Source of the DNA: an uncultured Actinomycetes bacterium
GTDB taxonomy: Bacteria > Actinomycetota > Actinomycetes > Streptosporangiales > Streptosporangiaceae
Assembly (NCBI GenBank): GCA_963814645.1
Contig: CAWFDX010000002.1
Coordinates: 368,480 to 432,479 of the forward strand
Direction of reading: 5' to 3'
Length of the DNA stretch: 64,000 bases
Shown piece after piece: positions 4,649 through 62,978 of the stretch. The translations under genes and the position numbers were made by a program. The notes beneath the pieces are model-generated. The model was not told the DNA's origin, searched no databases, and saw only the letters and a list, made by a program, of their open reading frames with translations. Numbering within the stretch: the stretch's first letter is position 1; every line of letters begins with the position of its first letter.

Positions 4649-4903
4649 GTACTGCCTCCCCGCTGCCCTGCCGTTGCTGCGGCCAGTCCGCTGACTGTTA
4701 CCTCATTACACACGGGTCTGAGCGGCCGAAACATCCACGCGGAATGATCTCGCCAACTTGGTTTCGTGCTGCACAGCCCCGCTCGCCCCGCTTCACCCCC
4801 CTGCTAGCGGTAAAGGAGATCATGTCGTAACAGGCGATTCTTGTGCAGTCGTCGCTGGTGCGTTACGTTCTGGCCACCTGATCACGGCGCGGGAAGGATC
4901 AGC

Positions 4904-6382
4904 ATGAGCGGTACCGAATCCCTTCCGTTTGGCGAGAGCAAGAGCCCCCTGGTCGAGGAGGCCGGCCAGGAACTCCGGCTGCGCCGCGGCGCGCTGGGCA
5001 TCTTCGACATCTCCGCGGCCACGATGGCCAACATCGGGCCCGCGATGTCCTTCTACTTCGGCTTCGGCTTCCTGGCCATCACGGCCGGCGTCGCCTCCCC
5101 GCTGACCATCGTGGCGGCCGGCATCGCGATCGCGCTGCTCGGTAACACGCTGGCTCAGTTCTCCCGGGCCCAGCCGTCCACCGGCGGCTTCATCACGTTC
5201 GTCGGCAAGACGTTCGGCGGCACCAGCGCGGTGACCACGGCGCTGCTCTGCGGGGTGGGCTACATCATCGCGATGTCCTCGGTCATCGCGATCTCCGGCG
5301 GCTTCCTGTCCATCACCCTGCAGCGCTACGGGAACGTGAACATCCCGTGGGGCATCTTCACCGTGGTCCTGACCGCGCTGGCCGTGCTGATGATGATCCG
5401 CGGTGTGGCCATCTCCACCAAGATCGCCGGCTTCTTCTTCGCGTTCGAGATGCTGGTGCTGATCGTCGTGTCGGTGGCGGCCCTGATCAAGAACGGCGGC
5501 CACCTGTCCGGCATCCCGTTCGAGCCGAGCCACATCACCAACGGCTTCTCCGGGCTGGCGGCGGGCTTCCCGCTGGCCATCTACCTGTTCATCGGCTGGG
5601 AGAACTCGGCCGCACTGGCCGAGGAAACCGACAACCCGCGGCGCAACGTGCCGCGCGCCGTGTTCACCTCGGTGGCCATCATGTCCATCAGCTACATCGT
5701 GTTCGCCTACGCCACCGTCAGCGGGTTCGGCTACAACGTGAGCAAGCTCGGTGCGGCGCCGATCCCGTTCATCTCGGTGGCCGACAGCACCATTGGCGTA
5801 CTGGCGTTCTTCGCCTACCTGGCCGGGATGACCTCCACCCTGGGCGCGTTGATCGCGGGTACCAACTCGCAGGCCCGGCTGGTGTTCAACGCGGGCCGGG
5901 AGGGCCTGCTGCCGCGCTTCATCGGGCACGTCAACCCGGCCCGGCGCACCCCGATGAACGCCATCTTCACGTTCGTGACCATCTCCGCCCTCATCATCGG
6001 CATCTGGGCGCTGCTGCACGCCATCGGCGGCAGCACCGGCTCGCTCGACCCGATCGCGTTCTTCGCCGAGTCGTCCACCATGGGCACCATCCTGGTGCTG
6101 GTCGTCTACCTGCTGGCCAACCTGGCCCTGCCGTTCTACTACCGCAGGTTCCGGCCGGAGGAGTTCAACGTGCTCAAGCACGCGGTGCTGCCGGTGCTCG
6201 GCGCGCTGGCCATCATCGTGCCGCTGTACTACCTGGCCAAGCCGGGCCAGCCGACCCCGTACGACTGGTTCCCGTACGCGGCGCTGATCGTGGTCGTGGT
6301 GGCCGCGGTCTATGCCTTCTTCCTCAACCGGCGCGATCCCGAACTGGCCGGCCGGGTCGGCTCCCTGGTCGCCGACGAGTAA
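4904..6382 (+). CDS. APC-superfamily amino acid/polyamine permease
   Basis: About 12 hydrophobic segments and an APC-like N-terminus (LGIFDISAATMANIGPAMSFYF). ATG at 4904 is preceded by gggaagga. The annotated ORF opens earlier, at 4841. Confidence 0.85.
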   Translation: MSGTESLPFGESKSPLVEEAGQELRLRRGALGIFDISAATMANIGPAMSFYFGFGFLAITAGVASPLTIVAAGIAIALLGNTLAQFSRAQPSTGGFITFVGKTFGGTSAVTTALLCGVGYIIAMSSVIAISGGFLSITLQRYGNVNIPWGIFTVVLTALAVLMMIRGVAISTKIAGFFFAFEMLVLIVVSVAALIKNGGHLSGIPFEPSHITNGFSGLAAGFPLAIYLFIGWENSAALAEETDNPRRNVPRAVFTSVAIMSISYIVFAYATVSGFGYNVSKLGAAPIPFISVADSTIGVLAFFAYLAGMTSTLGALIAGTNSQARLVFNAGREGLLPRFIGHVNPARRTPMNAIFTFVTISALIIGIWALLHAIGGSTGSLDPIAFFAESSTMGTILVLVVYLLANLALPFYYRRFRPEEFNVLKHAVLPVLGALAIIVPLYYLAKPGQPTPYDWFPYAALIVVVVAAVYAFFLNRRDPELAGRVGSLVADE

Positions 6383-6738
6383 CCGGGCGGGTCAGCCCGC
6401 AGCGGGGCCGCCGCGTACCTGCCCTCGTGGGCCAGCACCGGGCGGCGGTCCCCGGCCAGTTCCGGGTGCCGGTCCTCCAGCGCCCGGCGCTGTTCTGCGG
6501 TGCGCCGCAACTCGGTGACGTACTCCCGGTTGCCTTCGTAGGTGCCCCGCCAGGTCTGCGGCATGGCCTCGGCGGGCGGAGGCAGCGACGCGGCCGCCGA
6601 ACCGCCGATGCCGAACCGGGCCGGCACCTTGCGCACCCGCCCGCCACACTGCGGGCACGGCGGCAACGGCGCCTGCAGCGACTGGATGACCTCGAAGTCC
6701 GGATGCCCCTGCGCGCAGCGCAACTGGTAAATAGGCAC
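6310..6738 (-). CDS. FmdB-like zinc-ribbon protein with extended C-terminus
   Basis: GTG start at 6738 lies 2 nt after the upstream ADH stop. N-terminus VPIYQLRCAQGHPDFEV...CPQCGGRVRKV resembles FmdB-family regulators, but the first knuckle is C-x3-H rather than CxxC. The 3' end overlaps the convergent permease by 73 nt. Confidence 0.55.
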   Translation of the reverse strand: MPIYQLRCAQGHPDFEVIQSLQAPLPPCPQCGGRVRKVPARFGIGGSAAASLPPPAEAMPQTWRGTYEGNREYVTELRRTAEQRRALEDRHPELAGDRRPVLAHEGRYAAAPLRADPPGYSSATREPTRPASSGSRRLRKKA

Positions 6739-50132: not shown

Positions 50133-50810
50133 TCACATCGACGGGGCTTCGCCGCGCAGCTCGCGCGGCTTCTTCTTCCGCGGCGGGCGGCGCTGCACGT
50201 TCACCCCGCCCATCAGGGCGAAGCCCACCACCTTGAGCCGCGGCGCGCCGGGCAGGCCGGGCCCGGTTGCCCGGTGATCGAAACCGCCCATGAATGCGAA
50301 ACCGGACACGTCTACCGAGATCTCCTCGTCCACGATGATGTCGATGCCGCCCATTAGCGCGAACGTCTGGATGGTCACCTCGTGCCCGCTGAACCGGGCC
50401 TCCCGCAGGTCGAGGCTGACGGCGCCCATAATGGCCACCGCGGTGTAGCTGGGCGGCACTACCCAGCCGCCGGACCGGTGCGCCTCGCTCATTACCGCGA
50501 CCGAGATGGCCGACCCGGGGGTGCCGCCGATCCGGGACTCCGGGAACCGGGGGGCCGCGGAATCGACCGGTGGCAGCGGCGCGGTCACTATGGCGGGCGG
50601 CTGCGGCCCGGCCTCGGGCAGATCCTCGGTGACCGCGGCCAGTTCGCCGTAGGTCCTGGCCGCGTAGGCGGCGGTGAGCCGGTCGTCCAGCTCCTCGAGC
50701 GTGATCCGCCCGTCACCGGCCGCACGGCGCAGCACCTCGGCGGCGTGTTCCCGTTCTGCGTCGGATACCCGGAGGTTCCGGCGGTCAGCCGGCCCGTCGG
50801 GGATGGTCAT
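50133..50810 (-). CDS. DUF1707 (SHOCT-like) protein with LiaF-like C-terminal domain
   Basis: N-terminus LRVSDAEREHAAEVLRRAAGDGRITLEELDDRL is the DUF1707 signature. The C-terminal MGG-repeat beta region (FALMGGIDII..., FAFMGGFD, FALMGGVNV) follows. Confidence 0.8.
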   Translation of the reverse strand: MTIPDGPADRRNLRVSDAEREHAAEVLRRAAGDGRITLEELDDRLTAAYAARTYGELAAVTEDLPEAGPQPPAIVTAPLPPVDSAAPRFPESRIGGTPGSAISVAVMSEAHRSGGWVVPPSYTAVAIMGAVSLDLREARFSGHEVTIQTFALMGGIDIIVDEEISVDVSGFAFMGGFDHRATGPGLPGAPRLKVVGFALMGGVNVQRRPPRKKKPRELRGEAPSM

Positions 50811-50822
50811 CTAGCCGCCGCC

Positions 50823-51089
50823 CTACTCGCTGGGCAGCGAGATCTCGAGGGCGGTGATCCCGCGCAGGTCCAGCCAGGCCCGGTCCGACGTGTGGACCAG
50901 GCGGAGCAGCACCTGGCCGCAGGTCTGGCAGCGGGCCACCGCGCCCGGGCCGTCCATGAAGACGTGGGCCTGGGCCATCGCGGCCCGGGTCCCGCACGAG
51001 GCGCACTGGCCCATCGCACTGGTCAGGTCCACGGCGAACACCTCGCCGAGCGGCCCGGCCAGCGCGTTGCCGTCCAGGTAGGTCTGCAC
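50823..51089 (-). CDS. DUF6510-like zinc-ribbon protein
   Basis: 88 aa with LDGNALAGPLGEVF and two CxxC pairs (CASCG ... CQTCG). The start lies 2 nt after the reductase stop. Confidence 0.7.
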   Translation of the reverse strand: MQTYLDGNALAGPLGEVFAVDLTSAMGQCASCGTRAAMAQAHVFMDGPGAVARCQTCGQVLLRLVHTSDRAWLDLRGITALEISLPSE

Positions 51090-51091
51090 GG

Positions 51092-51841
51092 TTAGCCTCC
51101 GGAAGGTCCGAATCGTTCCGTCTTGATCGCACCGGGCCGGTGACCGGCCTGGATGAGCAGGTTAGCGGCCGCCTCCACGAACCCGGTCGGGCCGCACACG
51201 AACACCGCGGGCGGCGCCCCGGTCTCATCGCCCCGGGGCAGCTCGGCGGCGCTGAGCCGGCCGGGCGGCCGCGGCCACCCAGTTGGCACTGAGCGGGTGT
51301 ACAGATAATCGATGCCCAGGCCATCAGCCTGGCGCTGGCGTTCGGCTAGCTCGGCGGTATACAGGGCGTCGGCGGGAGAGCGGACTGAATAGAGCAGCTG
51401 GAACGGAGCGTGGCCGTCCGCCGCGGCGCGGCTGCGGATCATGGACATCAGCGGGACGATGCCGCTGCCGCCCGCCACCAGCAGTACCGGGCCGGGGCTG
51501 GCCGGGTCCCAGACGAACCAGCCGCCGATCGGGCCGCGCAGCTCGAACGGGTAGCCGGCCTGCAGCGTCTCGGTCAGGTAAGGGGAGACCTCGCCGTCGG
51601 GCAGCCGCTGGACGGTCAGCTCCACCCGGCCGGGTTCGGGCGCCGAGGCGATGGAGTAGGACCGCTCGACCGAGTAGCCGTCCTCGGCGGTGAGCCGCAC
51701 GTCCACGTGCTGCCCGGGCAGGTGCCCGGCCCAATTGGGCAGGTCGATCCCGATGCTGACCGCGACCGCGGTCTCCTTGCGGATATCGCTGACTGTGCCG
51801 TCCTGCCAGCTCAGTCGCCCCAGTACCGCTGTTCCCGCCAT
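51092..51841 (-). CDS. FNR-type FAD/NAD(P)H oxidoreductase (ferredoxin-reductase-like)
   Basis: FAD-binding RSYSIAS and NAD-binding LVAGGSGIVPLMSM. About 250 aa. The start overlaps the upstream gene by 31 nt, so the start is somewhat uncertain. Confidence 0.85.
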   Translation of the reverse strand: MAGTAVLGRLSWQDGTVSDIRKETAVAVSIGIDLPNWAGHLPGQHVDVRLTAEDGYSVERSYSIASAPEPGRVELTVQRLPDGEVSPYLTETLQAGYPFELRGPIGGWFVWDPASPGPVLLVAGGSGIVPLMSMIRSRAAADGHAPFQLLYSVRSPADALYTAELAERQRQADGLGIDYLYTRSVPTGWPRPPGRLSAAELPRGDETGAPPAVFVCGPTGFVEAAANLLIQAGHRPGAIKTERFGPSGG

Positions 51842-52407
51842 GGGTCTCCGTAGTTGTTATAGCCGAGGCTCTCCCAGAATCCTGGCTGGTCCTTGTCCCT
51901 CAAGTCGATGCCTTGCACCCATTTGGCGGATTTCCAGAAGTACAGGTGCGGGACCAGCAGCCGGGCCGGGCCGCCGTGCTCGGCGGTCAGCGGCTTGCCC
52001 TCGTACTCGAACGCTATCCAGGCCTGCCCGTCGCGCACATCGGCCAGCGGCAGGTTGGTGGTGTACCCGCCGTAGCTGTGCGCCAGCAGGTACTGCGCGC
52101 TGGTCTCCGCCTCGGCCAGCAGGGTATCCAGCGACACCCCGCGCCAGTGCGTGGTCAGCTTGGACCACTTCGTCACGCAGTGGATGTCAACCGTGATGTC
52201 CTCGTCCGGCAGGGCGCGGAACTCGGTCCAGTTCCACTCCCGGACCTGGCCGGTCTCGGTCTTTAGCCGGAACTGCCAGGATCCGGTGTCCACCCGGGGG
52301 GTGGGCCCGGCGGACAGCACCGGGAAGTCGGTGACCAGGTACTGGCCCGGCGGAAGCTTCTGGTCCCCACGGCGCCGGCCGTGGAAACCGGGTGACACGA
52401 TGCCCAT
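51811..52407 (-). CDS. Soluble molybdopterin-dependent oxidoreductase (sulfite-oxidase/YedY-MsrP fold, catalytic domain only)
   Basis: LPPGQYLVTDFPVL, the Mo-ligand-type Cys in IHCVTKWS, EHGGPARLLVPHLYFWKSAKWV. No Tat or Sec signal. Confidence 0.85.
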   Translation of the reverse strand: MGIVSPGFHGRRRGDQKLPPGQYLVTDFPVLSAGPTPRVDTGSWQFRLKTETGQVREWNWTEFRALPDEDITVDIHCVTKWSKLTTHWRGVSLDTLLAEAETSAQYLLAHSYGGYTTNLPLADVRDGQAWIAFEYEGKPLTAEHGGPARLLVPHLYFWKSAKWVQGIDLRDKDQPGFWESLGYNNYGDPWREQRYWGD

Positions 52408-52482
52408 CCGCCTAGCTTGTCACGGGCGGCCGGAAGTGGATCTCCGGCCACCCCCGGTCATGCCGCCGCGGCCCGGTCCGGG

Positions 52483-52833
52483 TCAGTGCAGGTGGCGCGT
52501 CCAGTCGGCGGGGACCCGGCCGGCCGGGCCCGGGGTTGGCTGGTCCAGCGGGTGATGCTCGGGCGGGGCCAGCGGCGGGCCGTCGTAGAACGACTCGTCC
52601 TGATAGCTCCAGAACCAGTCCTCGCCTGGCTCGAAGCTGCGGATCAGCGGGTGGCCGGCCGTGCTGGCGTGCGCGCTGGCGTGCTGCGACGGCGAACTGT
52701 CGCAGCAGCCGATGTGCCCGCACTCGGCGCACCGCCGCAGGTGGAACCACCAGCCACCGGCTTCCGTGCACTCGACGCATCCGGTGCCGCTGGGCTTGGC
52801 GTCCGGGTTGACGCCCGGGGCCACGTCGGCCAT
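52483..52833 (-). CDS. UBP-type zinc-finger domain protein
   Basis: CVECTEAGGWWFHLRRCAECGHIGCCDSSPSQHASAH matches the zf-UBP Cys/His pattern. The start codon directly abuts the kinase stop. Confidence 0.8.
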   Translation of the reverse strand: MADVAPGVNPDAKPSGTGCVECTEAGGWWFHLRRCAECGHIGCCDSSPSQHASAHASTAGHPLIRSFEPGEDWFWSYQDESFYDGPPLAPPEHHPLDQPTPGPAGRVPADWTRHLH

Positions 52834-54321
52834 TCAGTCCTCCTCTGGTGCGGTCACCGGCAGCCGGACCTGGAACCGGGTGTTCCCGGGCTCCGACTCC
52901 ACCCGCAGGTCGCCGTGGTGCCGGTTGACCACGATCCGCCACGAGATGTCCAGCCCGAGACCGGTGCCCTCACCGACGGGCTTGGTGGTGAAGAACGGCT
53001 CGAAGATACGGTCCTTGATCTCCGGCGGCACGCCCGGCCCAGTATCGCTGATCTCCACCAGCACCCAGTCGTTGTCCCGGGCGGTGCGCACGGTCAGCGT
53101 GCCGTGCCCGTCCATCGCGCTGACCGCGTTGTCGATCAGGTTGGTCCAGACCTGGTTCAGCTCGGCCGGGTAGGCCGGGATCGGCGGCAGGCTGCGGTCG
53201 AAGTCCTTGACCACTGTGATCCCGTCGCCGATCTTGGCGCTCAGCATCATGAGCGTGCTCTTCAGCAGCTCGTGCACGTCCACCACCTGGAACGGGGCCC
53301 GGTCCAGCTGGGAGTATTGCTTAGCCGCGCTGACCAGGTTGGACACCCGCTTGGTCGAGTCCTCGATCTCGTTCATCAGCAGCTCGGTCTCGACCGTGTA
53401 GTTCAGCCAGCGGAGGGCGCCCTCCAGGGTGCCGTCATCGACTATCGCCGCCACCTGGTCCAGCCAGCCCGCGTCCAGCCCGCCCTGCACGAACGTGGGC
53501 GCCAGCTCCCAGCCCCGGTCGCAGCCGTGATCCTGCAGCCAGTCGGCTACCGCGTCCTCCCGGTCGGACGCCTCCATCGGGGTCAGCTCGGGCGCCTTGG
53601 ACACCCGTTCCGCCGCCTCTTCCTGCAGCCGGACCAGGGTCTCCAGGCCGCTCTGGTCCCAGTTGCCCTGGGCGATCATGGCCAGCTTGTGCCGCATCCC
53701 GGCGATCCGGTCGCGCAGCGTGGAGGTGGCCCGCACCGCCGCGGCGGCCGGGTTGTTCAGCTCGTGGGTCAGACCGGCCGACAGCGAGCCCAGCGCGAGC
53801 AGCCGTTCCCGCTGGCCGACCTGCTGCTGGACGTTCTTGATGCCGAAGAACAGCCCCTCCAGCATGTGCACGGCCATCGGGAACCAGTCCCGCATCATGG
53901 CTGCGAACTTGTCCGCGTCCAGCACGTAGAACCGGCTCGGCTCGGTGACCCGCATCGAGTTGTCGTACACCTGCGGCACCCGGTCGCCCAGGTAGGCCCG
54001 GAACGCCCCGGTGTACACGCCGCGCCCGGAGCTGCGGTTCACCTCGACGTCGTCACCGCCGATCCGGCGGGACATCACCAGGGTGCCCTCGATCAGCACG
54101 TAGAAGCAGGTCGCCGGGTCACCCTCGCGGTAGACCTGGCCGGGGTCGAACAGCTCGACCCGGCCTTCCCGGCACAGCCATTCCAGCTGGTCGTCGGTCA
54201 GCTTCTCGAACAGGAACAGGGTGCGCAGCTCGGCCACGTCACACGGCAGGGTCTGCCGCCGGGTGGACTGGGAGGCCGGGGTCTGGTCTTCGGGTGACTG
54301 GGTGGCGGGCTCTGCGCTCAT
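52834..54321 (-). CDS. Cytoplasmic histidine kinase with N-terminal cyclic-nucleotide-binding-like domain
   Basis: CAP/cNMP-like beta-barrel region (LFEKLTDDQLEWL...FYVLIEGTLVM), H-box GLTHELNNP, N-box WTNLIDNAVSA and G-boxes DTGPGVP / GTGLGLDIS. No TM segments. Confidence 0.85.
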   Translation of the reverse strand: MSAEPATQSPEDQTPASQSTRRQTLPCDVAELRTLFLFEKLTDDQLEWLCREGRVELFDPGQVYREGDPATCFYVLIEGTLVMSRRIGGDDVEVNRSSGRGVYTGAFRAYLGDRVPQVYDNSMRVTEPSRFYVLDADKFAAMMRDWFPMAVHMLEGLFFGIKNVQQQVGQRERLLALGSLSAGLTHELNNPAAAAVRATSTLRDRIAGMRHKLAMIAQGNWDQSGLETLVRLQEEAAERVSKAPELTPMEASDREDAVADWLQDHGCDRGWELAPTFVQGGLDAGWLDQVAAIVDDGTLEGALRWLNYTVETELLMNEIEDSTKRVSNLVSAAKQYSQLDRAPFQVVDVHELLKSTLMMLSAKIGDGITVVKDFDRSLPPIPAYPAELNQVWTNLIDNAVSAMDGHGTLTVRTARDNDWVLVEISDTGPGVPPEIKDRIFEPFFTTKPVGEGTGLGLDISWRIVVNRHHGDLRVESEPGNTRFQVRLPVTAPEED

Positions 54322-56000
54322 AGTTTCTCCAGGTAGCGGTGCACCAGCATGACCGCCATGGCCCCCTCGCCGACGGCGGAGGCGACCCGTTTGGCGGATT
54401 CAGCGCGGGCGTCCCCGGCCACGAACACTCCGGGCACGCTGCTCTCCAGGTGGTAGGGCGCCCGGTCGAGCTGCCAGCCGGGCGGGTTCTGGCCCTCGAC
54501 GGACAGGTCCGGGCCGGCCACCACGAACCCGTGGTCATCCCGGACCACCACCCCGTCCAGCCATTCGGTGAGCGGAGCAGCCCCGATAAATACGAACAAC
54601 AGCCCGGCGTCAACTGTTTCCGTGCTGCCGTTGGCGGTGTTCCGCAGGGTGAGCTGCTCCAGGTGCCCGTCCCCGTCGGCCTGGATGATCTCGGTGCAGG
54701 TGCGCACCGTGATGTTGTCGATGCCCTCGATCTGCTGGATCAGGTAGTAGGACATGGACCGTTCCAGCGACGGCCCACGGACCAGCAGCGTGACCGACTT
54801 GGCGTGCTTGGACAGGTACACCGCGGCCTGGCCGGCCGAGTTGGCCCCGCCGACGATGTAGACGTCCTGGTCGATGCAGGCCGAGGCCTCGGTCAGCGCC
54901 GAGCCGTAGTACACGCCGCGGCCGGTCAGCTCCTCCAGGCCGGGCGCGCTGAGCTGCCGGTAGGTAACGCCGGTAGCCAGGATGATGCTGTGCGCGCCGA
55001 TCGTGCCGCCGTCGGCGAACCGGATGCCGCGCGCCGACCCCTTGACGTCCAGGCCGACCACCTCGCGGGTGGTGAGCAGTTCGGCGCCGAACTTCTGCGC
55101 CTGCATCCGGGCCCGGAGGGTGAGCTGGGCCCCGGACACCCCGTCCGGGAAGCCCAGGTAGTTCTCGATCCGTGAGCTCTGGCCGGCCTGGCCGCCGGTC
55201 GCGGTCCGCTCGACCAGCACGGTCTTCAGCCCTTCGGACGCGCCGTACACGGCCGCGCCGAGCCCGGCCGGGCCGCCGCCGATCACCACCAGGTCGTAGA
55301 AGTCTTCGGCCGGGGTGGTGCTCAGCCCGACCTTGCTAGCCAGCTCGGTGTCGCTCGGCGCGATCATCGTCTCGCCGTCCGGCGTGATGATCAGCGGCAG
55401 CGTCCGCCCGTCGGCCCCGGCCGCGGCGAGCAGCCGCTCGCCGTCCGGCTCGTCCGAGTTGAACCAGCGGTAGGCCACCTCGTTCCGGGCCAGGAACTCG
55501 CGCACCTCGCTGCACCGGGCCGACCAGCGGTGCCCGACCATCTTGGTCACGTGCACCGCCTGGTGGTTGCTGGCCCGCCAGGCGTCCAGCTGCTCGTCGA
55601 TCACCGGGTAGAGCTTCTCCTCCGGCGGATCCCAGGGCTTGAGCAGGTAGTAGTCGAGATCGACGACGTTGATCGCCTCGATGGCCGCGTTGGTGTCGGC
55701 GTAGGCGGTGAGCAGCACCCGGCGGGCGGCCGGGTAGAACCTCATCGCTTCCTCGAGGAACTCGACGCCGTTCATCTGCGGCATCCGGTAGTCGGCCAGC
55801 AGGATTGCCACCTCATCGCCGCGCAGGCGCAGCTCCTTCAGTGCGTCCAGCGCCGCGGCGCCGGATTCGGCTCGGACGATACGGTACTGGCCTCCGTATC
55901 GCTGCCGCAGGTCACGGGCTACCGCCCGGGACACTCCGGGGTCGTCGTCAACGGTCAGAATTGCGGTCAGGGCGGGGGTGTCCTGCGTCGGCGTGGTCAT
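54318..56000 (-). CDS. Fused response-regulator receiver / thioredoxin-fold linker / thioredoxin-reductase-like FAD oxidoreductase
   Basis: Receiver (LTVDDDP, ILLADYRMP, LLTAYAD, LLKPW), a middle Grx-like segment, then GGGPAGLGAAVY and GGANSAGQAAVYL dinucleotide sites and C-terminal VFVAGDAR. ATGA overlap with the kinase start. Confidence 0.9.
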   Translation of the reverse strand: MTTPTQDTPALTAILTVDDDPGVSRAVARDLRQRYGGQYRIVRAESGAAALDALKELRLRGDEVAILLADYRMPQMNGVEFLEEAMRFYPAARRVLLTAYADTNAAIEAINVVDLDYYLLKPWDPPEEKLYPVIDEQLDAWRASNHQAVHVTKMVGHRWSARCSEVREFLARNEVAYRWFNSDEPDGERLLAAAGADGRTLPLIITPDGETMIAPSDTELASKVGLSTTPAEDFYDLVVIGGGPAGLGAAVYGASEGLKTVLVERTATGGQAGQSSRIENYLGFPDGVSGAQLTLRARMQAQKFGAELLTTREVVGLDVKGSARGIRFADGGTIGAHSIILATGVTYRQLSAPGLEELTGRGVYYGSALTEASACIDQDVYIVGGANSAGQAAVYLSKHAKSVTLLVRGPSLERSMSYYLIQQIEGIDNITVRTCTEIIQADGDGHLEQLTLRNTANGSTETVDAGLLFVFIGAAPLTEWLDGVVVRDDHGFVVAGPDLSVEGQNPPGWQLDRAPYHLESSVPGVFVAGDARAESAKRVASAVGEGAMAVMLVHRYLEKL

Positions 56001-56077: not shown

Positions 56078-56620
56078 TCAGCGGCCTTGGACCGGGTCTT
56101 CGTGGTCGTCGATGTCGTCCCGGCCCCGGCGGGACAGTGGCAGCGCGAACCACAGCGCGGCGAACACGCAGAGCAGGCCGCCGCTAATCACATCCGCGCG
56201 TAGTCCCGGGGCCACGAAACTGGTCACCAGCAGCACCGCTGAGCACACCGCCAGCCCCACCGTGATCAGCCCGGCGATGGCCAGCACGTTGGTCACCCGG
56301 ACCAGGCTCTCCTTCTCGTGCCGCCGGAACAGCAGCCGGTGATAGGCGACCGGCGCGACCAGCAGCGCGGTGGACAGGGCGGCCAGCACCACGGTGACGA
56401 GGTAGATGGCGCGCTCGGTGTGATCCAGCTTGGTGAACCGGTTGTCGAACGGGATCGTCAGCAGGAAGCCGAACATGACCTGGATGCCGATGCCGACCAC
56501 GCGGAGTTCGTTGAGCAGCTCTATGACATTGCGGTCGGCCCGCTCGGCCATGGTCTCCCCGGGCCGGTCCGGTTCGGCCCGGGCCTCGTCGGCGGCTTCC
56601 CGGGAGCTGTCCGTGCTCAT
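56078..56620 (-). CDS. DUF6328-like membrane protein
   Basis: ERADRNVIELLNELRVVGIGIQVMFGFLLTIPF followed by further TM helices, which is typical for the family. Confidence 0.7.
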   Translation of the reverse strand: MSTDSSREAADEARAEPDRPGETMAERADRNVIELLNELRVVGIGIQVMFGFLLTIPFDNRFTKLDHTERAIYLVTVVLAALSTALLVAPVAYHRLLFRRHEKESLVRVTNVLAIAGLITVGLAVCSAVLLVTSFVAPGLRADVISGGLLCVFAALWFALPLSRRGRDDIDDHEDPVQGR

Positions 56621-56754
56621 CCTGCCCGGGGCCCTGCGCTAGCCATGTCCCCGAGTTACCCGCCGGCCGCACGGCAAAACGACCGCGCTGGCCGGCGGGC
56701 TGAGCGGCCCGGTGGCTGCTTGACGGGGGTTGCGGGGTGTGATCTTCTGTCTTG

Positions 56755-56912
56755 CGTTCCGCCGACGGCAGGGCAGGAAGCCGGTGCGAGTCCGGCGCGG
56801 TCCCGCCACTGTGACCGGGGAGCGAGTCCCGTGACGGCCACGACCGCGAGAGCGGTGGGAAGGCCGGGAGGAGCTTCGATCCGGGAGCCAGGAGACTGCG
56901 GCTGTCGGTCCA
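56755..56912 (+). promoter_or_regulatory. Cobalamin (AdoCbl) riboswitch
   Basis: Core aggaagccggtgcgagtccggcgcggtcccGCCACTGtgaccgggg carries the B12 box at 56805-56811. Downstream are gggaaggccggg and ccgggagccaggagac. P1 candidates are ccgacggcag (56761-56770) and ctgcggctgtcgg (56897-56909). It lies directly upstream of cbiB. Confidence 0.85.
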
Positions 56913-56952
56913 ACGCCTGCGGGGCGTGGTTACCCCGGGGAGGGCTCAGCTG

Positions 56953-57909
56953 ATGATGGTGCCGTCGCGGCCAGGATCCGCGCGGGCGGCCGGGCTGCTG
57001 GCTGGCGGGCTGCTGGACGCCGTGCTGGGCGACCCACGGCGCGGGCACCCGGTGGCGATCTTCGGCGCCGCGGCTACCCGGGCCGAAAATCTGCTCTGGT
57101 CCGACAGCCGGGGCCGGGGCGCGGCCATGGTGGCCGCGTGCGTGGCCCCGGTAGCGCTGGCTGGCCTGGGCGCGCAGCGGGTGACCCGGGGGCGCCCGGC
57201 GCTCACCGTGGCCGCCACCGCGCTGGCCAGCTGGACGGTGCTGGGCGGGGCCAGCCTGGGCGGCTCGGCGCTGCCCCTCGGCCGCGCGCTGGCCGCCGGT
57301 GACCTGGCTGCGGCCCGGCGGATGCTGCCCGCCTTGTGCGGCCGCGACCCGGACCAGCTCGATGCGGCCGGCCTGGCCCGGGCGGTCGTGGAGTCGGTGG
57401 CCGAGAACACCTCCGACGCGGTGGTCGCCCCGCTGCTGTGGGGCGCGGTGGCCGGGCTGCCCGGCCTGCTCGGCTACCGCGCGGTGAACACCCTGGACGC
57501 GATGATCGGCCAGCGCAGCCCGCGCTACCAGCGGTTCGGCTGGGCGGCGGCCCGGCTGGACGACGCGGCCAACCTGATCCCGGCCCGGGTCACCGGCCTG
57601 CTCGCGGTCGCGCTGGCGCCTTCCGTCGGCGGCAGCTCCCGGCGCGCGCTGCGCACCCTGCTCCGCGACGGCCGGCGCCATCCCAGCCCGAACGCCGGCC
57701 AGTGCGAGGCGGCGTTCGCGGGCGCGCTGGGCGTCCAGCTGGGCGGCCGGAACAGCTATCAGGGCCGGGCCGAGCAGCGTGGCCTGCTGGGCGACGGCGT
57801 ACCACCGGCCGCCGCCGACATCGACCGGGCCGTCCGGCTGTCCCGGCTGGTCAGCGCGGCCGCGCTGGGCCTGGCGGCCATCGTGGCCTGGAGGAGGACA
57901 TACCGATGA
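56953..57909 (+). CDS. cbiB: Adenosylcobinamide-phosphate synthase CbiB/CobD
   Basis: LLDAVLGDPRRGHPV, AENTSDAVVAPL and NTLDAMIGQRSPRY...AARLDDAANLIPAR. ATG at 56953 is preceded by ggggaggg. The ORF opens at 56926. Confidence 0.9.
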   Translation: MMVPSRPGSARAAGLLAGGLLDAVLGDPRRGHPVAIFGAAATRAENLLWSDSRGRGAAMVAACVAPVALAGLGAQRVTRGRPALTVAATALASWTVLGGASLGGSALPLGRALAAGDLAAARRMLPALCGRDPDQLDAAGLARAVVESVAENTSDAVVAPLLWGAVAGLPGLLGYRAVNTLDAMIGQRSPRYQRFGWAAARLDDAANLIPARVTGLLAVALAPSVGGSSRRALRTLLRDGRRHPSPNAGQCEAAFAGALGVQLGGRNSYQGRAEQRGLLGDGVPPAAADIDRAVRLSRLVSAAALGLAAIVAWRRTYR

Positions 57910-59648
57910 GCGACGAGGCCAACTCGCTGCCGCAGGCGGACATTGATGCGCTGTACCGGGTCGTGGCCGAGCGCCGCGACGTGCGCAACGGATTCCGGCC
58001 GGATCCGGTGGACGACGCCACGCTGACCCGGGTGCTGGCCGCCGCGCACCAGGCGCCCAGCGTCGGGCTCAGCCAGCCCTGGGACTTCATCGTGCTGCGT
58101 GACCGGGAGATCCGGGCCCAGGTGCACGCGCTGGCCCGCCGCCAGCAGGACGTGTTCGCGGCCCAGCTGCCCGGCGCGCGGGCCCGGGCCTTCAGCCAGC
58201 TGAAGGTCGAGGCGATCCTGGACACCCCGGTCAACATCGTGGTCACCTGCGATGCCACCCGGGGCGGCCGCCACGTGCTGGGCCGGCACGCGCAGCCGCA
58301 GGTGGCCGCGTACTCGACGGCCTGCGCGGTGCAGAACCTGTGGCTCGCGGCCCGGGCCGAGGGGCTCGGCGTGGGCTGGGTCAGCTTCTTCGCCGAGCGC
58401 GAGCTGGCCGCGGTCCTCGGGCTGCCCGGGCACCTGGAGGTCGTCGCCTACCTGTGCGTGGGCCACGTCACCGAGTTCCCGCCCGCACCGGAGCTGGTGC
58501 TCAGCGGCTGGGCCCAGCGCCGGCCGCTGGCCTGGGCGGTGCACGACGGGCAGTGGGGCCGCCGCGGGCTGCCCGGCCAGCGGCCGGCCCGGCTACTGGC
58601 CGACACGGTGGCCGCCATCCAGCCGCTGGACGCCGCGGCGGTCGCCCAGGCCCGGGAGCGGCAGGAGGCGCTGACCAAGCCGAGCGGCTCGCTGGGCCAG
58701 CTGGAAGCGGTGTCGGTGCAGCTGGCTGGCGTGGCCGGGGAGTGCCCGCCGCCGCTGCCGGAACCGGCCGTGGTGGCCGTGTTCGCCGCCGACCATGGGG
58801 TGCACGCCCAGGGCGTCACGCCCTGGCCACAGGAGGTCACCGCGCAGATGGTGGCCAACTTCCTGGCCTCCGGCGCGGTGGTCAACGCGATCGCGGCCCA
58901 GGCCGGTGCCGAGGTGTGCGTGGTCAACGTGGGCGTCGCCGCCGACCTGCCGCCCGGTCCCGGGCTGCTGCCGCGGAAGATCCGGCCGGGCACCGCGGAC
59001 ATGACCACCGGGCCGGCGATGAGCCGGGCCGAGGCCGAGCAGGCCGTCGAGGTGGGCATCGAGACCGCCCGCGACCTGGTCGCGGCGGGCAACCGCTGCC
59101 TGCTGACCGGGGACATGGGCATCGCCAACACGACCGCGTCGGCCGCGCTGATCGCGGTGTTCACCGGGGCCGACCCGGAGCAGGTCACCGGGCGGGGCAC
59201 TGGGATCGACGACCAGACCTGGCAGCGCAAGGTCGGCGTGGTGCGCCGGGCGCTGGCCCGCCACGCCGCTGACCCGGCCGACCCGCTGGGCGTGCTGGCC
59301 GCGGTGGGCGGCCTGGAGCACGCCGCGCTGGCCGGCTTCATGCTCGGCGGCGCCGCACTGCGGGTGCCGGTGCTGCTGGACGGCGTCATCGCGTGCGCCG
59401 CCGCGCTGGCCGCCCGCGCGCTGGCCCCGGACGTCACGGGGTTCCTGATCGCCGGGCATCTGTCCAGCGAGCCCGGGGCCCGCCGGGCGCTGGACGCGCT
59501 CCGGCTGCGCCCGCTGCTCGACCTGGAGCTGCGGCTCGGCGAGGGGTCCGGGGCCGCGCTGGCGCTGCCGGTGGTCGGCGCGGCCGCCCGGGTGCTGCGC
59601 GACGTGGCCACGTTCGACAGCGCAGGCGTGTCCGGTGAAAAGGAATGA
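57906..59648 (+). CDS. bluB-cobT: Fusion of 5,6-dimethylbenzimidazole synthase (BluB) and nicotinate-nucleotide--DMB phosphoribosyltransferase (CobT)
   Basis: N-terminal nitroreductase-fold BluB region (VVAERRDVRNGFRPDPV..., APSVGLSQPWDFIV, GVGWVS). The CobT region follows (LTKPSGSLGQLE, VFAADHGV, GDMGIANTTASAAL, GEGSGAALA). ATGA overlap with cbiB. The upstream 190 codons of ORF 57336 were rejected. Confidence 0.85.
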   Translation: MSDEANSLPQADIDALYRVVAERRDVRNGFRPDPVDDATLTRVLAAAHQAPSVGLSQPWDFIVLRDREIRAQVHALARRQQDVFAAQLPGARARAFSQLKVEAILDTPVNIVVTCDATRGGRHVLGRHAQPQVAAYSTACAVQNLWLAARAEGLGVGWVSFFAERELAAVLGLPGHLEVVAYLCVGHVTEFPPAPELVLSGWAQRRPLAWAVHDGQWGRRGLPGQRPARLLADTVAAIQPLDAAAVAQARERQEALTKPSGSLGQLEAVSVQLAGVAGECPPPLPEPAVVAVFAADHGVHAQGVTPWPQEVTAQMVANFLASGAVVNAIAAQAGAEVCVVNVGVAADLPPGPGLLPRKIRPGTADMTTGPAMSRAEAEQAVEVGIETARDLVAAGNRCLLTGDMGIANTTASAALIAVFTGADPEQVTGRGTGIDDQTWQRKVGVVRRALARHAADPADPLGVLAAVGGLEHAALAGFMLGGAALRVPVLLDGVIACAAALAARALAPDVTGFLIAGHLSSEPGARRALDALRLRPLLDLELRLGEGSGAALALPVVGAAARVLRDVATFDSAGVSGEKE

Positions 59649-60253: not shown

Positions 60254-61050
60254 CCCGGGAGACGGTGATGACCCGGGCCCCGCGCACCTCCTCGTGGCGG
60301 GCCGCGCTGAGCCTGTTCACGGTCATCCCGGTCCGCGCGCCGGCCGAGCTCGATGCGGACGCGACGGCCCGGGCCATGTTCTGGCTGCCCGCGGTGGGCC
60401 AGCTGCTCGGCCTGGTGGCGGCGGCCGGGCTGGCCATCGCGGCGGCTGGCCGCCCGTCCGTGCCGCGGCAGTTGCTCGGCGCGGCCGTCGCCGTGGCGCT
60501 GCTGGCCGCGCTGACCGGCGGCCTGCACCTGGACGGGCTGGCCGACACGGCGGACGGGCTGGGCAGCCGCCGCCCGGCGGCCGACGCGCTGGCCATCATG
60601 CGCCGCCCGGACATCGGCCCGCTCGGGGTGGTCACGCTGGTGCTGGTGCTGCTGATCCAGGTGACCGCGCTGGCCGCGGTGCCGCGCGGCTGGCCTGCGG
60701 TGGCCGCCCTGGTGCTGGCCGCGGTGACTGGCCGGGTCGCCGCCGTGCTGGCCACCGGGGTGCCCGCCGCGCGGCCGGGTGGGCTGGGCGCGCTGGTGGC
60801 GGGCCGGACCGAGCAGGCCGGGCGGGTAGCGACCGGACTCGTCCTGCTGGCCGCGGTGGTGCCGGCCGGGCTCGCCGTGGGCGGCGTGCCGGCCATGCTG
60901 CGCGGGCTGGCCGGGGCGCTGGCCGGGCTGCTGGCCGGCGGCCTGCTGGCCCGGACCGCCCGGCGGCGGCTGGGCGGGATGACCGGTGACGTGTTCGGCG
61001 CGATCATCGAGCTGAGCACGGCGGTCGTCCTGCTGGCCCTGGTCTTTTAA
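60250..61050 (+). CDS. cobS: Adenosylcobinamide-GDP ribazoletransferase (cobalamin synthase)
   Basis: LSLFTVIPV, GGLHLDGLADTADG and GMTGDVFGA, with multiple TM segments. The GTG start overlaps the cobU stop. An alternative ATG lies at 60268. Confidence 0.85.
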   Translation: MTRETVMTRAPRTSSWRAALSLFTVIPVRAPAELDADATARAMFWLPAVGQLLGLVAAAGLAIAAAGRPSVPRQLLGAAVAVALLAALTGGLHLDGLADTADGLGSRRPAADALAIMRRPDIGPLGVVTLVLVLLIQVTALAAVPRGWPAVAALVLAAVTGRVAAVLATGVPAARPGGLGALVAGRTEQAGRVATGLVLLAAVVPAGLAVGGVPAMLRGLAGALAGLLAGGLLARTARRRLGGMTGDVFGAIIELSTAVVLLALVF

Positions 61051-61288
61051 TTATGATCCTGCACCTGAACGTATTTCGGTCTGGACATATATCGGGGGTG
61101 GCCCAGCTGGGCCTGTGCGGGCATAATGCGGGGCAATGGCGATTCCGGCAACCCGTCTCTCACCGGCTGCGGCGCGCAGCTCTTACCCGCATCGCCCGGG
61201 TCCCGCCGCGGTATCACAGTTGCCGGCCGTCTTCTACAAATCCCTGGCCACTGTCCCGTTCCCGTTCCCGTTGAAAGGACGACGCCTT

Positions 61289-62389
61289 ATGTTCAAGCGC
61301 CTGGTAGCTATGGCTGGCAGCCTGGTCATGGCCCTCGCGGGCCTGACCGTGACCGTGAGCTTAGCGCAGGCCGCCACCTCGGCCGGGACGTGCCGTCACG
61401 TCACCGGGCCGTTTCATATGCACAAAGACGAGATCACTGCCTCCACCGGGCAGCGCTATATCCCCTATGGGATCGTGGTCACCGGGCTGGGGAATCCTAA
61501 CTGGGCCGAGCATCAGCCCGGGGACGCCGCCGAGATAACCGCCTCGGCCAATTCGTGGTGCGCCAACACGGTCGAACTGGAGGTCTTTCAGTACGCCATG
61601 TTCAATGCGAACGGGAGCGTCAACTCGACCTTCCTCGGCCTGGTTGAGTCCGAAGTGAGCCAGGCGCTCGGACTGGGCCTGGTGGTGGCCATCACCGACC
61701 AGACCGAAGGCGGCCCACCGGACAGTGGAGGGCTACCGGAAGCGCAAACCAAGACGTTCTGGAATGTGCTGAACGGCATATACGGGCACAATACGGACGT
61801 AATCTTCGATCTGTACAACGAGCCCCGGCGGGTGGGCGCGGGCAACGAGACGTCAACCTGGAAGTACTGGCGGAACGGCGGTACGTACCAGGGCACGAAA
61901 TATATCGGGATGCAGACCCTGGCCAGTTACCTGCGCCGGATCGGGTCGCGCAACCTGTTCTGGATCGAGGGCCCGCATACCGGCGGTTCGCTGCAATACG
62001 TCAGGCAATACCAGGTGACCAAGGCCGGGCCGCTGGAGTACGGGGAAAATCATCCTGGCATGGTGAACTCGCCACACAACGCGGCGTACTGGAACACCCG
62101 GTTCGGCGACAGCGCCTCGGCGGTGCCGATAATCGAGACGGAGTGGACGAATTACGCGTCGACCCGATCCTGCTGGGTTAACGCGCCGAAGTCCGTACCG
62201 AGGTTCCTCGCGTATCTCGCGCAGCACCATATGGGCCTCATGGCCTGGACGCTGAGCCTGGGCGTGCTGGTGGAATCGGGCAACCTGGCCGACCCGACCA
62301 GGATCAAGAGTAATTGGGCTTGCAAGAATGGCCTCGACGAGGGCGCAGGTCATCAGTTCATGCAATTCTTCCGCCGGTACAATAGCTGA
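61289..62389 (+). CDS. Secreted glycoside hydrolase, GH5 (cellulase-family)-like
   Basis: Signal peptide MFKRLVAMAGSLVMALAGLTVTVSLAQAA. Acid/base-type motif IFDLYNEP and nucleophile-type motif IIETEW. GC is visibly lower than in neighbouring genes. Confidence 0.6.
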   Translation: MFKRLVAMAGSLVMALAGLTVTVSLAQAATSAGTCRHVTGPFHMHKDEITASTGQRYIPYGIVVTGLGNPNWAEHQPGDAAEITASANSWCANTVELEVFQYAMFNANGSVNSTFLGLVESEVSQALGLGLVVAITDQTEGGPPDSGGLPEAQTKTFWNVLNGIYGHNTDVIFDLYNEPRRVGAGNETSTWKYWRNGGTYQGTKYIGMQTLASYLRRIGSRNLFWIEGPHTGGSLQYVRQYQVTKAGPLEYGENHPGMVNSPHNAAYWNTRFGDSASAVPIIETEWTNYASTRSCWVNAPKSVPRFLAYLAQHHMGLMAWTLSLGVLVESGNLADPTRIKSNWACKNGLDEGAGHQFMQFFRRYNS

Positions 62390-62411
62390 CTGACGGTGCC
62401 GGGAGGAAAAC

Positions 62412-62978
62412 ATGAACGAGGCGCACCTGCGCATCTGCGCCAGCCCGGAATGGGCGGCCTACGTGGAGTCGGAACTGCTGCCGTGGGCGCTGCGGGAGGC
62501 CGACCTCGGCGACGAGGTGCTTGAAGTGGGGCCCGGGCCGGGGCTGACCACCGACGTGCTGCGCCGCCGGGTGCCCCGGCTCACCGCGGTGGGGATCGAC
62601 GAGCGGCTGGCCAGCGCGCTGGCCGAGCGGATGTCGGGCAGCAACGTCGAGGTGGTGCACGGCGACGGCACCCGGCTGCCGTTCGACCCGGGCCAGTTCA
62701 GCGCGGCCACCTTGTTCACCATGCTGCATCACGTCCCCTCGGCGGACCTGCAAGACAAACTGCTGGCCGAGGTGCGCCGGGTGGTCCGCCCGGGCGGGCT
62801 GGTGGTGGGCAGCGACTCGATGGCCACGCCAGCCCGCCGGGAACTGCACGAGGGGGACGACTACCTGCCCATCGATCCGGGCGGCCTGGCCGCCCGGCTG
62901 GCCGCCGCCGGGTTCACCGGCCCGGTCGTCGAGGTGCACGACGACCGGTTCCGCTTCCTGGCCACCGTGCCGGGCTAG
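62412..62978 (+). CDS. Class I SAM-dependent methyltransferase
   Basis: Motif I VLEVGPGPGLTT and post-I/II regions (VVHGDGTRLPF, VVRPGGLVV). RBS gggagg. Confidence 0.8.
   Translation: MNEAHLRICASPEWAAYVESELLPWALREADLGDEVLEVGPGPGLTTDVLRRRVPRLTAVGIDERLASALAERMSGSNVEVVHGDGTRLPFDPGQFSAATLFTMLHHVPSADLQDKLLAEVRRVVRPGGLVVGSDSMATPARRELHEGDDYLPIDPGGLAARLAAAGFTGPVVEVHDDRFRFLATVPG

Follow-up and report, generated by a model that had tools for sequence, protein, structure and literature searches.

The window analysed here is a stretch of 64,000 nucleotides from an uncultured actinobacterium of the Streptosporangiaceae (assembly GCA_963814645.1, contig CAWFDX010000002.1, positions 368,480 to 432,479). 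At 50133-56000 it carries seven minus-strand genes, which encode, in order of transcription, a response regulator fused to a flavoprotein (the regulator), a soluble histidine kinase, a zf-UBP zinc-finger protein, a short molybdenum (Mo) enzyme, an FNR-like reductase, a DUF6510 protein, and a DUF1707/LiaF-like protein. The array falls into three parts: a core pair of regulator and kinase, the zf-UBP gene, and the Mo/FNR/DUF6510 module. The core pair is conserved across seven phyla, and the best reading of its regulator is a two-component output that is probably an enzyme and not a transcription factor. In the original prediction, made from the letters of the window, the seven genes were taken as one redox-signalling array. 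The conserved pair and its link to zf-UBP stand, while the block of seven as one unit does not. The list of open reading frames (ORFs) agrees with the predicted coordinates of all seven genes, Pfam recovers the predicted domains of each product, and, as also predicted, Pfam finds no DNA-binding output domain in any of them.

The pair was searched for in one genome per species, giving at least 575 confirmed relatives, and the best 80 loci are analysed here. They come from many genera of Actinomycetota, from Cyanobacteriota, Acidobacteriota, Chloroflexota, Gemmatimonadota, and Planctomycetota, and from one Caballeronia. The kinase gene lies directly downstream of the regulator gene on the same strand in all 79 informative loci; the remaining locus (L052) stops at a contig edge. 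The CAP-like domain of the kinase is covered in 72 kinase matches. When ORFs from -6 to +8 kb of the regulator are clustered without bias, the only conserved families are the regulator, the kinase, and zf-UBP, the other large clusters being antisense shadows. The regulator and the kinase are shown to be an obligate pair across the seven phyla, adjacent far beyond chance. At the level of sequence, the adjacency and the invariance of kinase His186 and receiver Asp18/19, Asp70, Thr98, and Lys121 also bear out the prediction that the kinase and the fused receiver form a cognate phosphorelay. Several hundred species at the least carry the pair, among them Streptomyces, Nocardia, non-tuberculous mycobacteria, Micromonospora, and heterocystous cyanobacteria.

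The regulator gene (54318..56000, minus strand; Pfam Response_reg and Pyr_redox_2) encodes 560 residues. These comprise a receiver domain (residues 12-145, nt 55566-55967; Pfam Response_reg), a cysteine-free glutaredoxin-like fold seen in the AlphaFold2 (AF2) model (residues ~150-226, nt 55323-55553), and a thioredoxin reductase (TrxR)-like domain for flavin adenine dinucleotide (FAD) and NAD(P)H without a CxxC motif (residues 233-560, nt 54321-55304; Pfam Pyr_redox_2 and alignment to PDB entries). Two alignments were used: one takes 38 representatives of the family (36-53% identity), drawn from 1.84 billion cluster representatives searched, and the other takes 80 orthologues from genomes. The receiver belongs to the 'KPW' type; its nearest relatives are HD-GYP/NosR-type regulators (NF053512, E = 2e-29; PDB 2rjn). 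D18, D19, D70, T98, and K121, the full phospho-acceptor set, are each present in 80/80 orthologues. In the alignment of 38 representatives, many distant family members of the receiver type lack the acceptor Asp and are pseudo-receivers.

The C-terminal 330 residues adopt the TrxR fold (E = 6e-44 to PDB 4gcm). In the alignment, GSAL-T stands where 4gcm has C-AVC. The positions of the TrxR dithiol are occupied by [S/A/G]367 and [T/S]370 in all 80 orthologues, within a motif [S/A/G]-A-x-[T/S], and the catalytic Cys pair is likewise missing from all 38 diverse representatives. The motifs for FAD (GxGxxG, GG-Q, GD) and for NAD(P)H (GxGxxA) are kept, with G241, G243, G246, G269, G270, Q271, G384, N387, G529, and D530 invariant among the 38 representatives. 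Arg408 is the sole survivor of the HRR motif for NADPH; R408, G362, and Y365 are each found in 80/80 orthologues. The single conserved cysteine is Cys375 (76/80). The domain scores 209.3 bits against TIGR01292, the TrxR equivalog, below its cut-off of 343.45, and 148 bits against TIGR03140 (AhpF), for which the cut-off is 503. On sequence grounds, the JGI annotation of the flavoprotein as a thioredoxin reductase does not hold. Disulfide reduction of the thioredoxin type is excluded because CxxC is missing in every member examined. Database entries name the regulator 'FAD-dependent oxidoreductase' or 'thioredoxin reductase', and the second name is wrong, since the catalytic dithiol is absent.

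The AF2 model of the regulator (predicted local distance difference test, pLDDT, 90.7; predicted template-modelling score, pTM, 0.83) has a beta-alpha-beta-alpha-beta-beta-alpha glutaredoxin/thioredoxin fold at residues 152-223. Its cis-proline, P202, occurs in all 38 representatives and in 79/80 orthologues. At the site of CxxC, the motif is G-H-R-W-S-A-R with no Cys pair. In a Foldseek search with the model, full-length AhpF ranks first, and the reductase part fits best on TrxRs in the flavin-reducing (FR) state, with a TM-score of 0.94. As modelled, the architecture is like that of AhpF, except that both dithiols are gone and a receiver has been added. The original prediction of a receiver fused to an FAD/NAD(P)H enzyme is consistent with the fusion and the cofactor motifs; it had missed that the fold is that of TrxR without CxxC and that a cysteine-free glutaredoxin-like domain lies in between.

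TrxB and AhpF share the two-Rossmann FAD/NAD(P)H arrangement of the regulator, and the N-terminal thioredoxin-fold domain of AhpF has its likeness there as well. The regulator differs from both in that it lacks CxxC in the reductase and in the thioredoxin-fold domain, keeps one Arg of HRR, and falls below the curated cut-offs. YumC/BsFNR and YpdA/Bdr are also TrxR-like flavoproteins that work without a dithiol. Enzymes of the TrxR fold without CxxC serve ferredoxin, flavodoxin, or, through a single Cys, bacillithiol disulfide. TrxR-type FNRs carry a C-terminal extension that stacks on FAD; the chain of the regulator ends at the TrxR C-terminus. The similarity of the regulator to these enzymes is weak (1e-13 to 1e-15 for 3ab1, 5xhu, and 2zbw; 1e-10 for Bdr, 7a7b).

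In CheB, RpfG (REC-HD-GYP), PleD/WspR (REC-GGDEF), and REC-PP2C proteins, a canonical receiver is likewise joined to a catalytic domain that does not bind DNA, and the gene stands beside that of a kinase. The output differs from these response regulators in being a flavin/NAD(P)H oxidoreductase fold, and we found no characterised receiver-controlled member of the TrxR-type fold. The array had been predicted to be undescribed, with no member combination of experimentally defined function. This holds insofar as no functional study was found, and fails insofar as a response-regulator census already lists the receiver-TrxR architecture, which it calls 'Mycobacterium-like' (PMC5847659). As far as we found, four features are new: the missing CxxC, the pseudo-glutaredoxin domain, the linkage to zf-UBP, and the fact that the partner is always a CAP-domain kinase with an insertion in its DHp hairpin.

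The cassette of glutaredoxin-like and CxxC-less TrxR-like domains also exists apart from the receiver. Elsewhere it is fused to a cyclic-nucleotide (cNMP)-binding domain, with 42-48% identity over residues 153-557, and in a SnoaL-REC-TrxR-like architecture a SnoaL_2 domain stands ahead of the receiver. The exchange of its N-terminal partner for a cNMP-binding domain, and the presence of SnoaL-like domains ahead of it elsewhere, mark the cassette as the regulated element. In the cNMP fusions, which we regard as paralogues, the ligand-binding domain replaces the receiver in a one-component arrangement, whereas in the window the CAP-like domain resides on the kinase. Alternative N-terminal modules are carried by P0170, P0212, P0230, P0266, P0143, P0146, and P0125, and by the protein encoded at 4789-6468 (minus strand) of locus L165. 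P0125 has an extra cNMP domain on the C-terminal side of the receiver-TrxR-like protein.

The loss of both redox Cys motifs, in the TrxR-like and in the glutaredoxin-like domain, with the cofactor motifs kept, is a pattern of enzymes recruited as sensors. The TrxR-like domain could accordingly be an input, its FAD/NAD(P)H occupancy or redox state being read by the receiver or the kinase. The regulator would then be a scaffold or a phosphate sink that depends on redox state, and its output would be a protein contact, for example with zf-UBP. The existence of pseudo-receiver versions would fit such a role, as would the conserved insertion of the kinase, which could dock a partner. However, in the one-component version a classical ligand-binding domain occupies the N-terminal place of the receiver, which puts the flavoprotein downstream of the signal. 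In addition, the nicotinamide-side motifs are conserved, and so is Glu371, which we take to be the equivalent of the acid-base Asp139 of TrxR. We consider a sensory role of the domain unlikely and retain the reading of the regulator as an enzymatic output.

The kinase (52834..54321, minus strand; 495 aa; Pfam cNMP_binding and HATPase_c) has its H-box His186 in AGLTHELNNP and contains NLIDNA, DTGPGV, FEPFFTTK, and GTGLGL. Alignments of 72 and of 21 orthologues show little or no variation at His186 and in the N, G1, F, and G2 boxes. There is no hydrophobic segment in the protein. The HATPase_c domain covers residues 345-490 (Pfam). Between the H-box and this domain, the orthologue alignment places an insertion of ~100 residues in the DHp hairpin (residues ~205-310, nt 53392-53706), which is conserved and has the motif SDxEDxLxxWLxxHG...WxLAP. 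No match to the insertion exists in Pfam or the PDB, whose kinases align only at residues 169-195 and again from about 310; its role could be in docking or sensing.

The N-terminal part of the kinase (residues ~28-160) is a divergent CAP/cNMP-like domain. It scores 29.8 bits against PF00027, narrowly above the cut-off of 27.5, and has weak PDB matches to DNR and a cNMP-binding protein. The phosphate-binding cassette F-G-E...R-[ST]-A is replaced by GVYTGAFRAYLGDRVPQVYDNSMRV, which has neither Gly-Glu nor Arg-Ser/Thr-Ala, in agreement with the predicted non-canonical cassette, and only G101, G105, Y119, and R124 of this region are conserved among orthologues. Binding of cAMP or cGMP is unlikely because the cassette lacks Gly-Glu and Arg-Ser/Thr-Ala. 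The similarity between the CAP-like domain and the cNMP domains of the one-component paralogues is weak (best E = 1e-6) and therefore gives no evidence for a shared ligand.

The zf-UBP gene (52483..52833, minus strand; 116 aa; Pfam zf-UBP) encodes a protein of the long actinobacterial subtype that scores 50.1 bits against PF02148 (cut-off 22.7). C19, C22, H31, C35, C38, H40, C43, C44, H51, H55, and H61 are invariant. The closest structure to the AF2 model (pLDDT 86.5) is RPA1320 (PDB 2IDA, 49% identity), followed by the ZnF-UBP domains of HDAC6 and USP proteins; 2IDA is a nuclear magnetic resonance entry of Rhodopseudomonas palustris RPA1320 from structural genomics without an assigned function. 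Fold and zinc ligands are shared with RPA1320 and with the zf-UBP (BUZ) domains of HDAC6 and USP5, whereas there is no ubiquitin system here. Pair-linked zf-UBPs fall into two subtypes. In the short one (~85-105 aa), an additional CxH at the N-terminus and a WCY cysteine make up a third zinc site, which the eukaryotic domains also have. The long subtype (~116 aa) is without the third site and has a conserved Pro-rich tail, GPxLAPPxxHPxDQPxPGPxGRVPxDW. By manual alignment with HDAC6, the HDAC6 Arg that binds the C-terminal carboxylate of ubiquitin presumably corresponds to Asp45 in the invariant CCDSS motif.

With a dedicated hidden Markov model, zf-UBP is found in 28/80 pair loci and is always adjacent. 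Four placements occur: downstream of the kinase, between the pair genes, upstream and co-directional, and upstream and divergent. In a reciprocal search anchored on zf-UBP, a profile of pair-linked zf-UBPs recovers thousands of relatives, and the sample is biased to the pair-linked subfamily; the pair adjoins zf-UBP in 5/5 distinct contexts, co-directional or convergent. The linkage is independent of local synteny because the flanks of all five contexts are unrelated. The predicted link between zf-UBP and the pair is genuine, and zf-UBP is an accessory partner of the pair. A 588-codon open frame in L077 that appeared to fuse the kinase to zf-UBP was rejected as an out-of-frame, Arg-rich artefact of high G+C content; zf-UBP starts separately there.

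The Mo/FNR/DUF6510 module follows. The Mo protein (51811..52407, minus strand; 198 aa; Pfam Oxidored_molyb, 127.8 bits) is a short enzyme of the sulfite-oxidase fold, predicted to be cytoplasmic, with no signal peptide, transmembrane segment, or hydrophobic signal region. Its Mo ligand is Cys77 in DIHCVTKW, which is invariant in D[LI]HCVTKW and aligns to the Cys of chicken sulfite oxidase. The protein matches sulfite oxidase and YedY in the PDB, its NCBI relatives are named 'sulfite oxidase-like oxidoreductase', and it scores 47.8 bits against the MsrP/YedY model NF003767 (cut-off 207). The FNR-like FAD/NAD(P)H reductase (51092..51841, minus strand; 249 aa; Pfam FAD_binding_6 and NAD_binding_1, and NCBIfam) and the DUF6510 protein, a four-Cys zinc ribbon (50823..51089, minus strand; 88 aa; Pfam, 121 bits), complete the module. 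Scanning metagenomes with the Mo protein as anchor yielded 80 loci. The FNR-like gene follows the Mo gene in 58/61 of them, the 31-nt overlap between the two is identical in 60/62, and DUF6510 follows in 43/50. By these counts, Mo/FNR/DUF6510 is an autonomous, translationally coupled module, and its arrangement, like that of the pair, exceeds chance by far.

In eukaryotic assimilatory nitrate reductase and in the mARC/cytochrome b5/b5-reductase system, a Mo domain of the sulfite-oxidase fold or a related one is also fed by an FAD_binding_6/NAD_binding_1 reductase. The module of the window differs in being split into coupled proteins and in lacking haem b5, so that DUF6510 is the only candidate mediator. 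Compared with the periplasmic MsrP/YedY and SorA, the Mo protein is predicted to be cytoplasmic, is short, and has no dimerisation domain. In locus L167 (5336-8672), zf-UBP lies between FNR and DUF6510 without the pair, followed by an NDH-2-like flavoprotein gene. In L155 (525-5077), the module has a redoxin/thioredoxin-like protein on one side and a DyP peroxidase-encapsulin pair on the other. A TrxR-like fragment upstream of the module in L155 is not assignable to the flavoprotein family and may be an ordinary TrxR beside the redoxin; it was not counted.

The gene-neighbourhood comparison suggested in the original prediction gives different answers for the two links: the trio of regulator, kinase, and zf-UBP recurs in 28/80 pair loci, whereas Mo, FNR, and DUF6510 stand beside the pair in 1/80 (L001, upstream of the regulator). 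A second locus, L050, has a weak 31% Mo match beside the pair, and the Mo module is absent next to the pair in 78/80. Seen from the other side, the signalling genes accompany the Mo module in about 10/80 Mo-anchored loci. All pair-associated Mo proteins are >=68% identical to that of the window, so the association belongs to one Streptosporangiales-like (Trebonia-like) clade. Close Mo homologues without the pair exist in L083 (81% identity), L092, L098, L099, and L101. The window-type relatives also share their flanks, namely the cob operon, DUF6328, a sedolisin-like protease, and SerRS. These results, together with the self-sufficiency of the Mo trio elsewhere, would fit an accident of local synteny, the true units being the pair with or without zf-UBP and, separately, the Mo trio; we rate this reading as having nearly an even chance of being right.

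Other loci argue against an accident. In L122, the pair and the Mo block are kept together amid different flanks. In L001 and L094, the modules occur in swapped order, Mo-FNR-DUF6510 and then the regulator. At least three arrangements and one different flank context keep both modules together. In 13/80 Mo-anchored loci (12/62 of those with >=500 nt of upstream sequence), zf-UBP lies directly upstream of Mo, and its stop overlaps the Mo start in L100, L103, L119, L122, and L124, so that the two are translationally coupled in some relatives. In L095/L096, zf-UBP-Mo-FNR-DUF6510 is kept without the pair. The association inside the clade is more than frozen synteny, and zf-UBP behaves as a hinge between the modules.

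The same loci would fit one functional pathway made up of the genes from the regulator to DUF6510, as suggested in the original prediction, in which the phosphorelay controls the electron supply or the activity of the Mo reductase via the flavoprotein and zf-UBP. The five overlaps, the unrelated flanks of L122, the swapped orders, and the persistence of zf-UBP with the Mo module in the absence of the pair, including its place inside the module of L167, all point this way, as does L165, where two Mo genes have a cNMP-type paralogue of the flavoprotein at a distance of 2.5 kb. Against a single pathway stand the near absence of the module from the pair loci of seven phyla, the restriction of the associated cases to one clade, and the five close Mo homologues without the pair. 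In addition, the window has a 75-nt spacer (52408-52482), as predicted, with a hairpin between zf-UBP and Mo, compared with 0-20 nt in the relatives. We consider one pathway a possibility, though a minority one.

The hairpin of the spacer is a GC-rich stem of 12 pairs (52424..52453, minus strand, from a fold computation). The original prediction described it correctly as lacking a U tract and gave its length as 7 bp, which falls short of the 12-pair stem with its G.U pairs. Its folding energy is ordinary for DNA of 70% G+C (z = -1.2 versus shuffles). Its role may be that of a terminator, either weak or I-shaped, or of a processing site. A scan for promoter and terminator consensus sequences called nothing in the spacer and was not informative. 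Rfam finds no RNA element within the array and no molybdenum-cofactor riboswitch ahead of the Mo gene.

The regulator may work as follows. The kinase would sense a cytoplasmic small molecule, other than cAMP or cGMP, via its divergent CAP-like barrel, would autophosphorylate on His186, and would then pass the phosphoryl group to Asp70. TrxR-fold enzymes need a large domain rotation. On phosphorylation, the receiver could move against the flavoprotein together with the pseudo-glutaredoxin domain, and the shift would control either the rotation between the flavin-oxidizing (FO) and FR states or the dimer state. In this way it would switch the transfer of electrons from NAD(P)H to an acceptor other than thioredoxin. 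Among candidate protein partners, the Cys/His metalloprotein zf-UBP would be the likeliest, whether as the acceptor, as an adaptor, or as a target. In the Streptosporangiales-like clade, the pair would be placed in an operon-like block with a separate module running from NAD(P)H through the FNR-like flavoprotein, and perhaps DUF6510, to the Mo enzyme, with zf-UBP as the physical hinge. The complete chain, in which a kinase-gated CxxC-less flavoprotein has zf-UBP as its redox or binding partner and zf-UBP feeds or controls a nitrate-reductase-like split Mo enzyme, seems improbable to us. If true, it would be a case of post-translational two-component control of redox metabolism and would give prokaryotic zf-UBP domains a first function.

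Several points weigh against this mechanism. The flavoprotein can apparently work without phosphorylation, as distant members have lost the acceptor Asp. Cys375 may leave room for unconventional thiol chemistry. No adjacent zf-UBP is present in 65% of the pair loci. The interdomain steps are drawn purely by analogy from the known domain rotation of TrxR. Finally, our literature search found no functional, structural, or genetic study of the regulator, the kinase, the pair-linked zf-UBP, or the cNMP-type paralogue.

A receiver-controlled flavoenzyme, if true, would extend two-component signalling to the direct control of electron flow. The system also makes bacterial zf-UBP proteins tractable for the first time in a defined context, and likewise a CAP-like domain whose ligand is probably neither cAMP nor cGMP. 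The comparative data narrow the focus from seven proteins to two or three, and relatives of the L122 type are best suited to the question of the Mo link.

The remaining predicted junctions are visible in the sequence. The regulator and kinase genes overlap by ATGA at 54318-54321, the kinase stop abuts the zf-UBP start in TGAATG (52834/52833), and the 31-nt Mo/FNR overlap is followed by spacers of +2 and +12 nt. Residues 1 to ~25 of the kinase show no conservation among orthologues. For this reason the start is uncertain, and so is the ATGA overlap; the true start may lie further downstream in frame, in which case a short gap would replace the overlap. All seven proteins of the array are soluble, and the only membrane segments are in the flanking upstream DUF6328 protein. 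None of the eight proteins tested with PADLOC matches any component of a defence system.

The last gene of the array encodes the DUF1707/LiaF-like protein (50133..50810, minus strand; 225 aa; Pfam DUF1707 and a sub-threshold LiaF-like_C). DUF1707 is found in 0/80 pair-anchored loci and in 4/38 Mo-anchored loci with enough downstream sequence, and it stands beside the Mo module only where the flanks are also syntenic. The DUF6328 membrane protein gene (56078-56620, minus strand) is co-directional with the regulator gene and 77 nt upstream of it. DUF6328 likewise occurs in 0/80 pair-anchored loci and is kept only in syntenic relatives of the window type (L081, L091). Both are local neighbours outside any conserved unit.

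Genes for a sedolisin-like protease and a GH42 beta-galactosidase border the array downstream. Its upstream border is formed by a cobalamin riboswitch and the cob operon, which run divergently. The riboswitch (RF00174, 81.9 bits, 56738-56916, plus strand) precedes the plus-strand operon, which comprises a CobD-like gene (56926-57909) and then genes for a BluB-like nitroreductase-CobT fusion, CobU, and CobS, to about 61050. Given the position of the riboswitch, a 341-aa minus-strand ORF at 56656-57681 is almost certainly spurious. In the ORF at 57336-59648 (plus strand), Nitroreductase (BluB-like) and DBI_PRT (CobT) domains are fused. The call of 770 residues is too long at its 5' end, the fusion in L081 having 578 residues; in L082, the two domains are encoded by separate genes. 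At 61000-62500, the G+C content falls to about 0.63, from 0.70-0.78 in the surroundings, over a GH5 cellulase-like gene (61136-62389, plus strand), and this stretch may be a recent acquisition.

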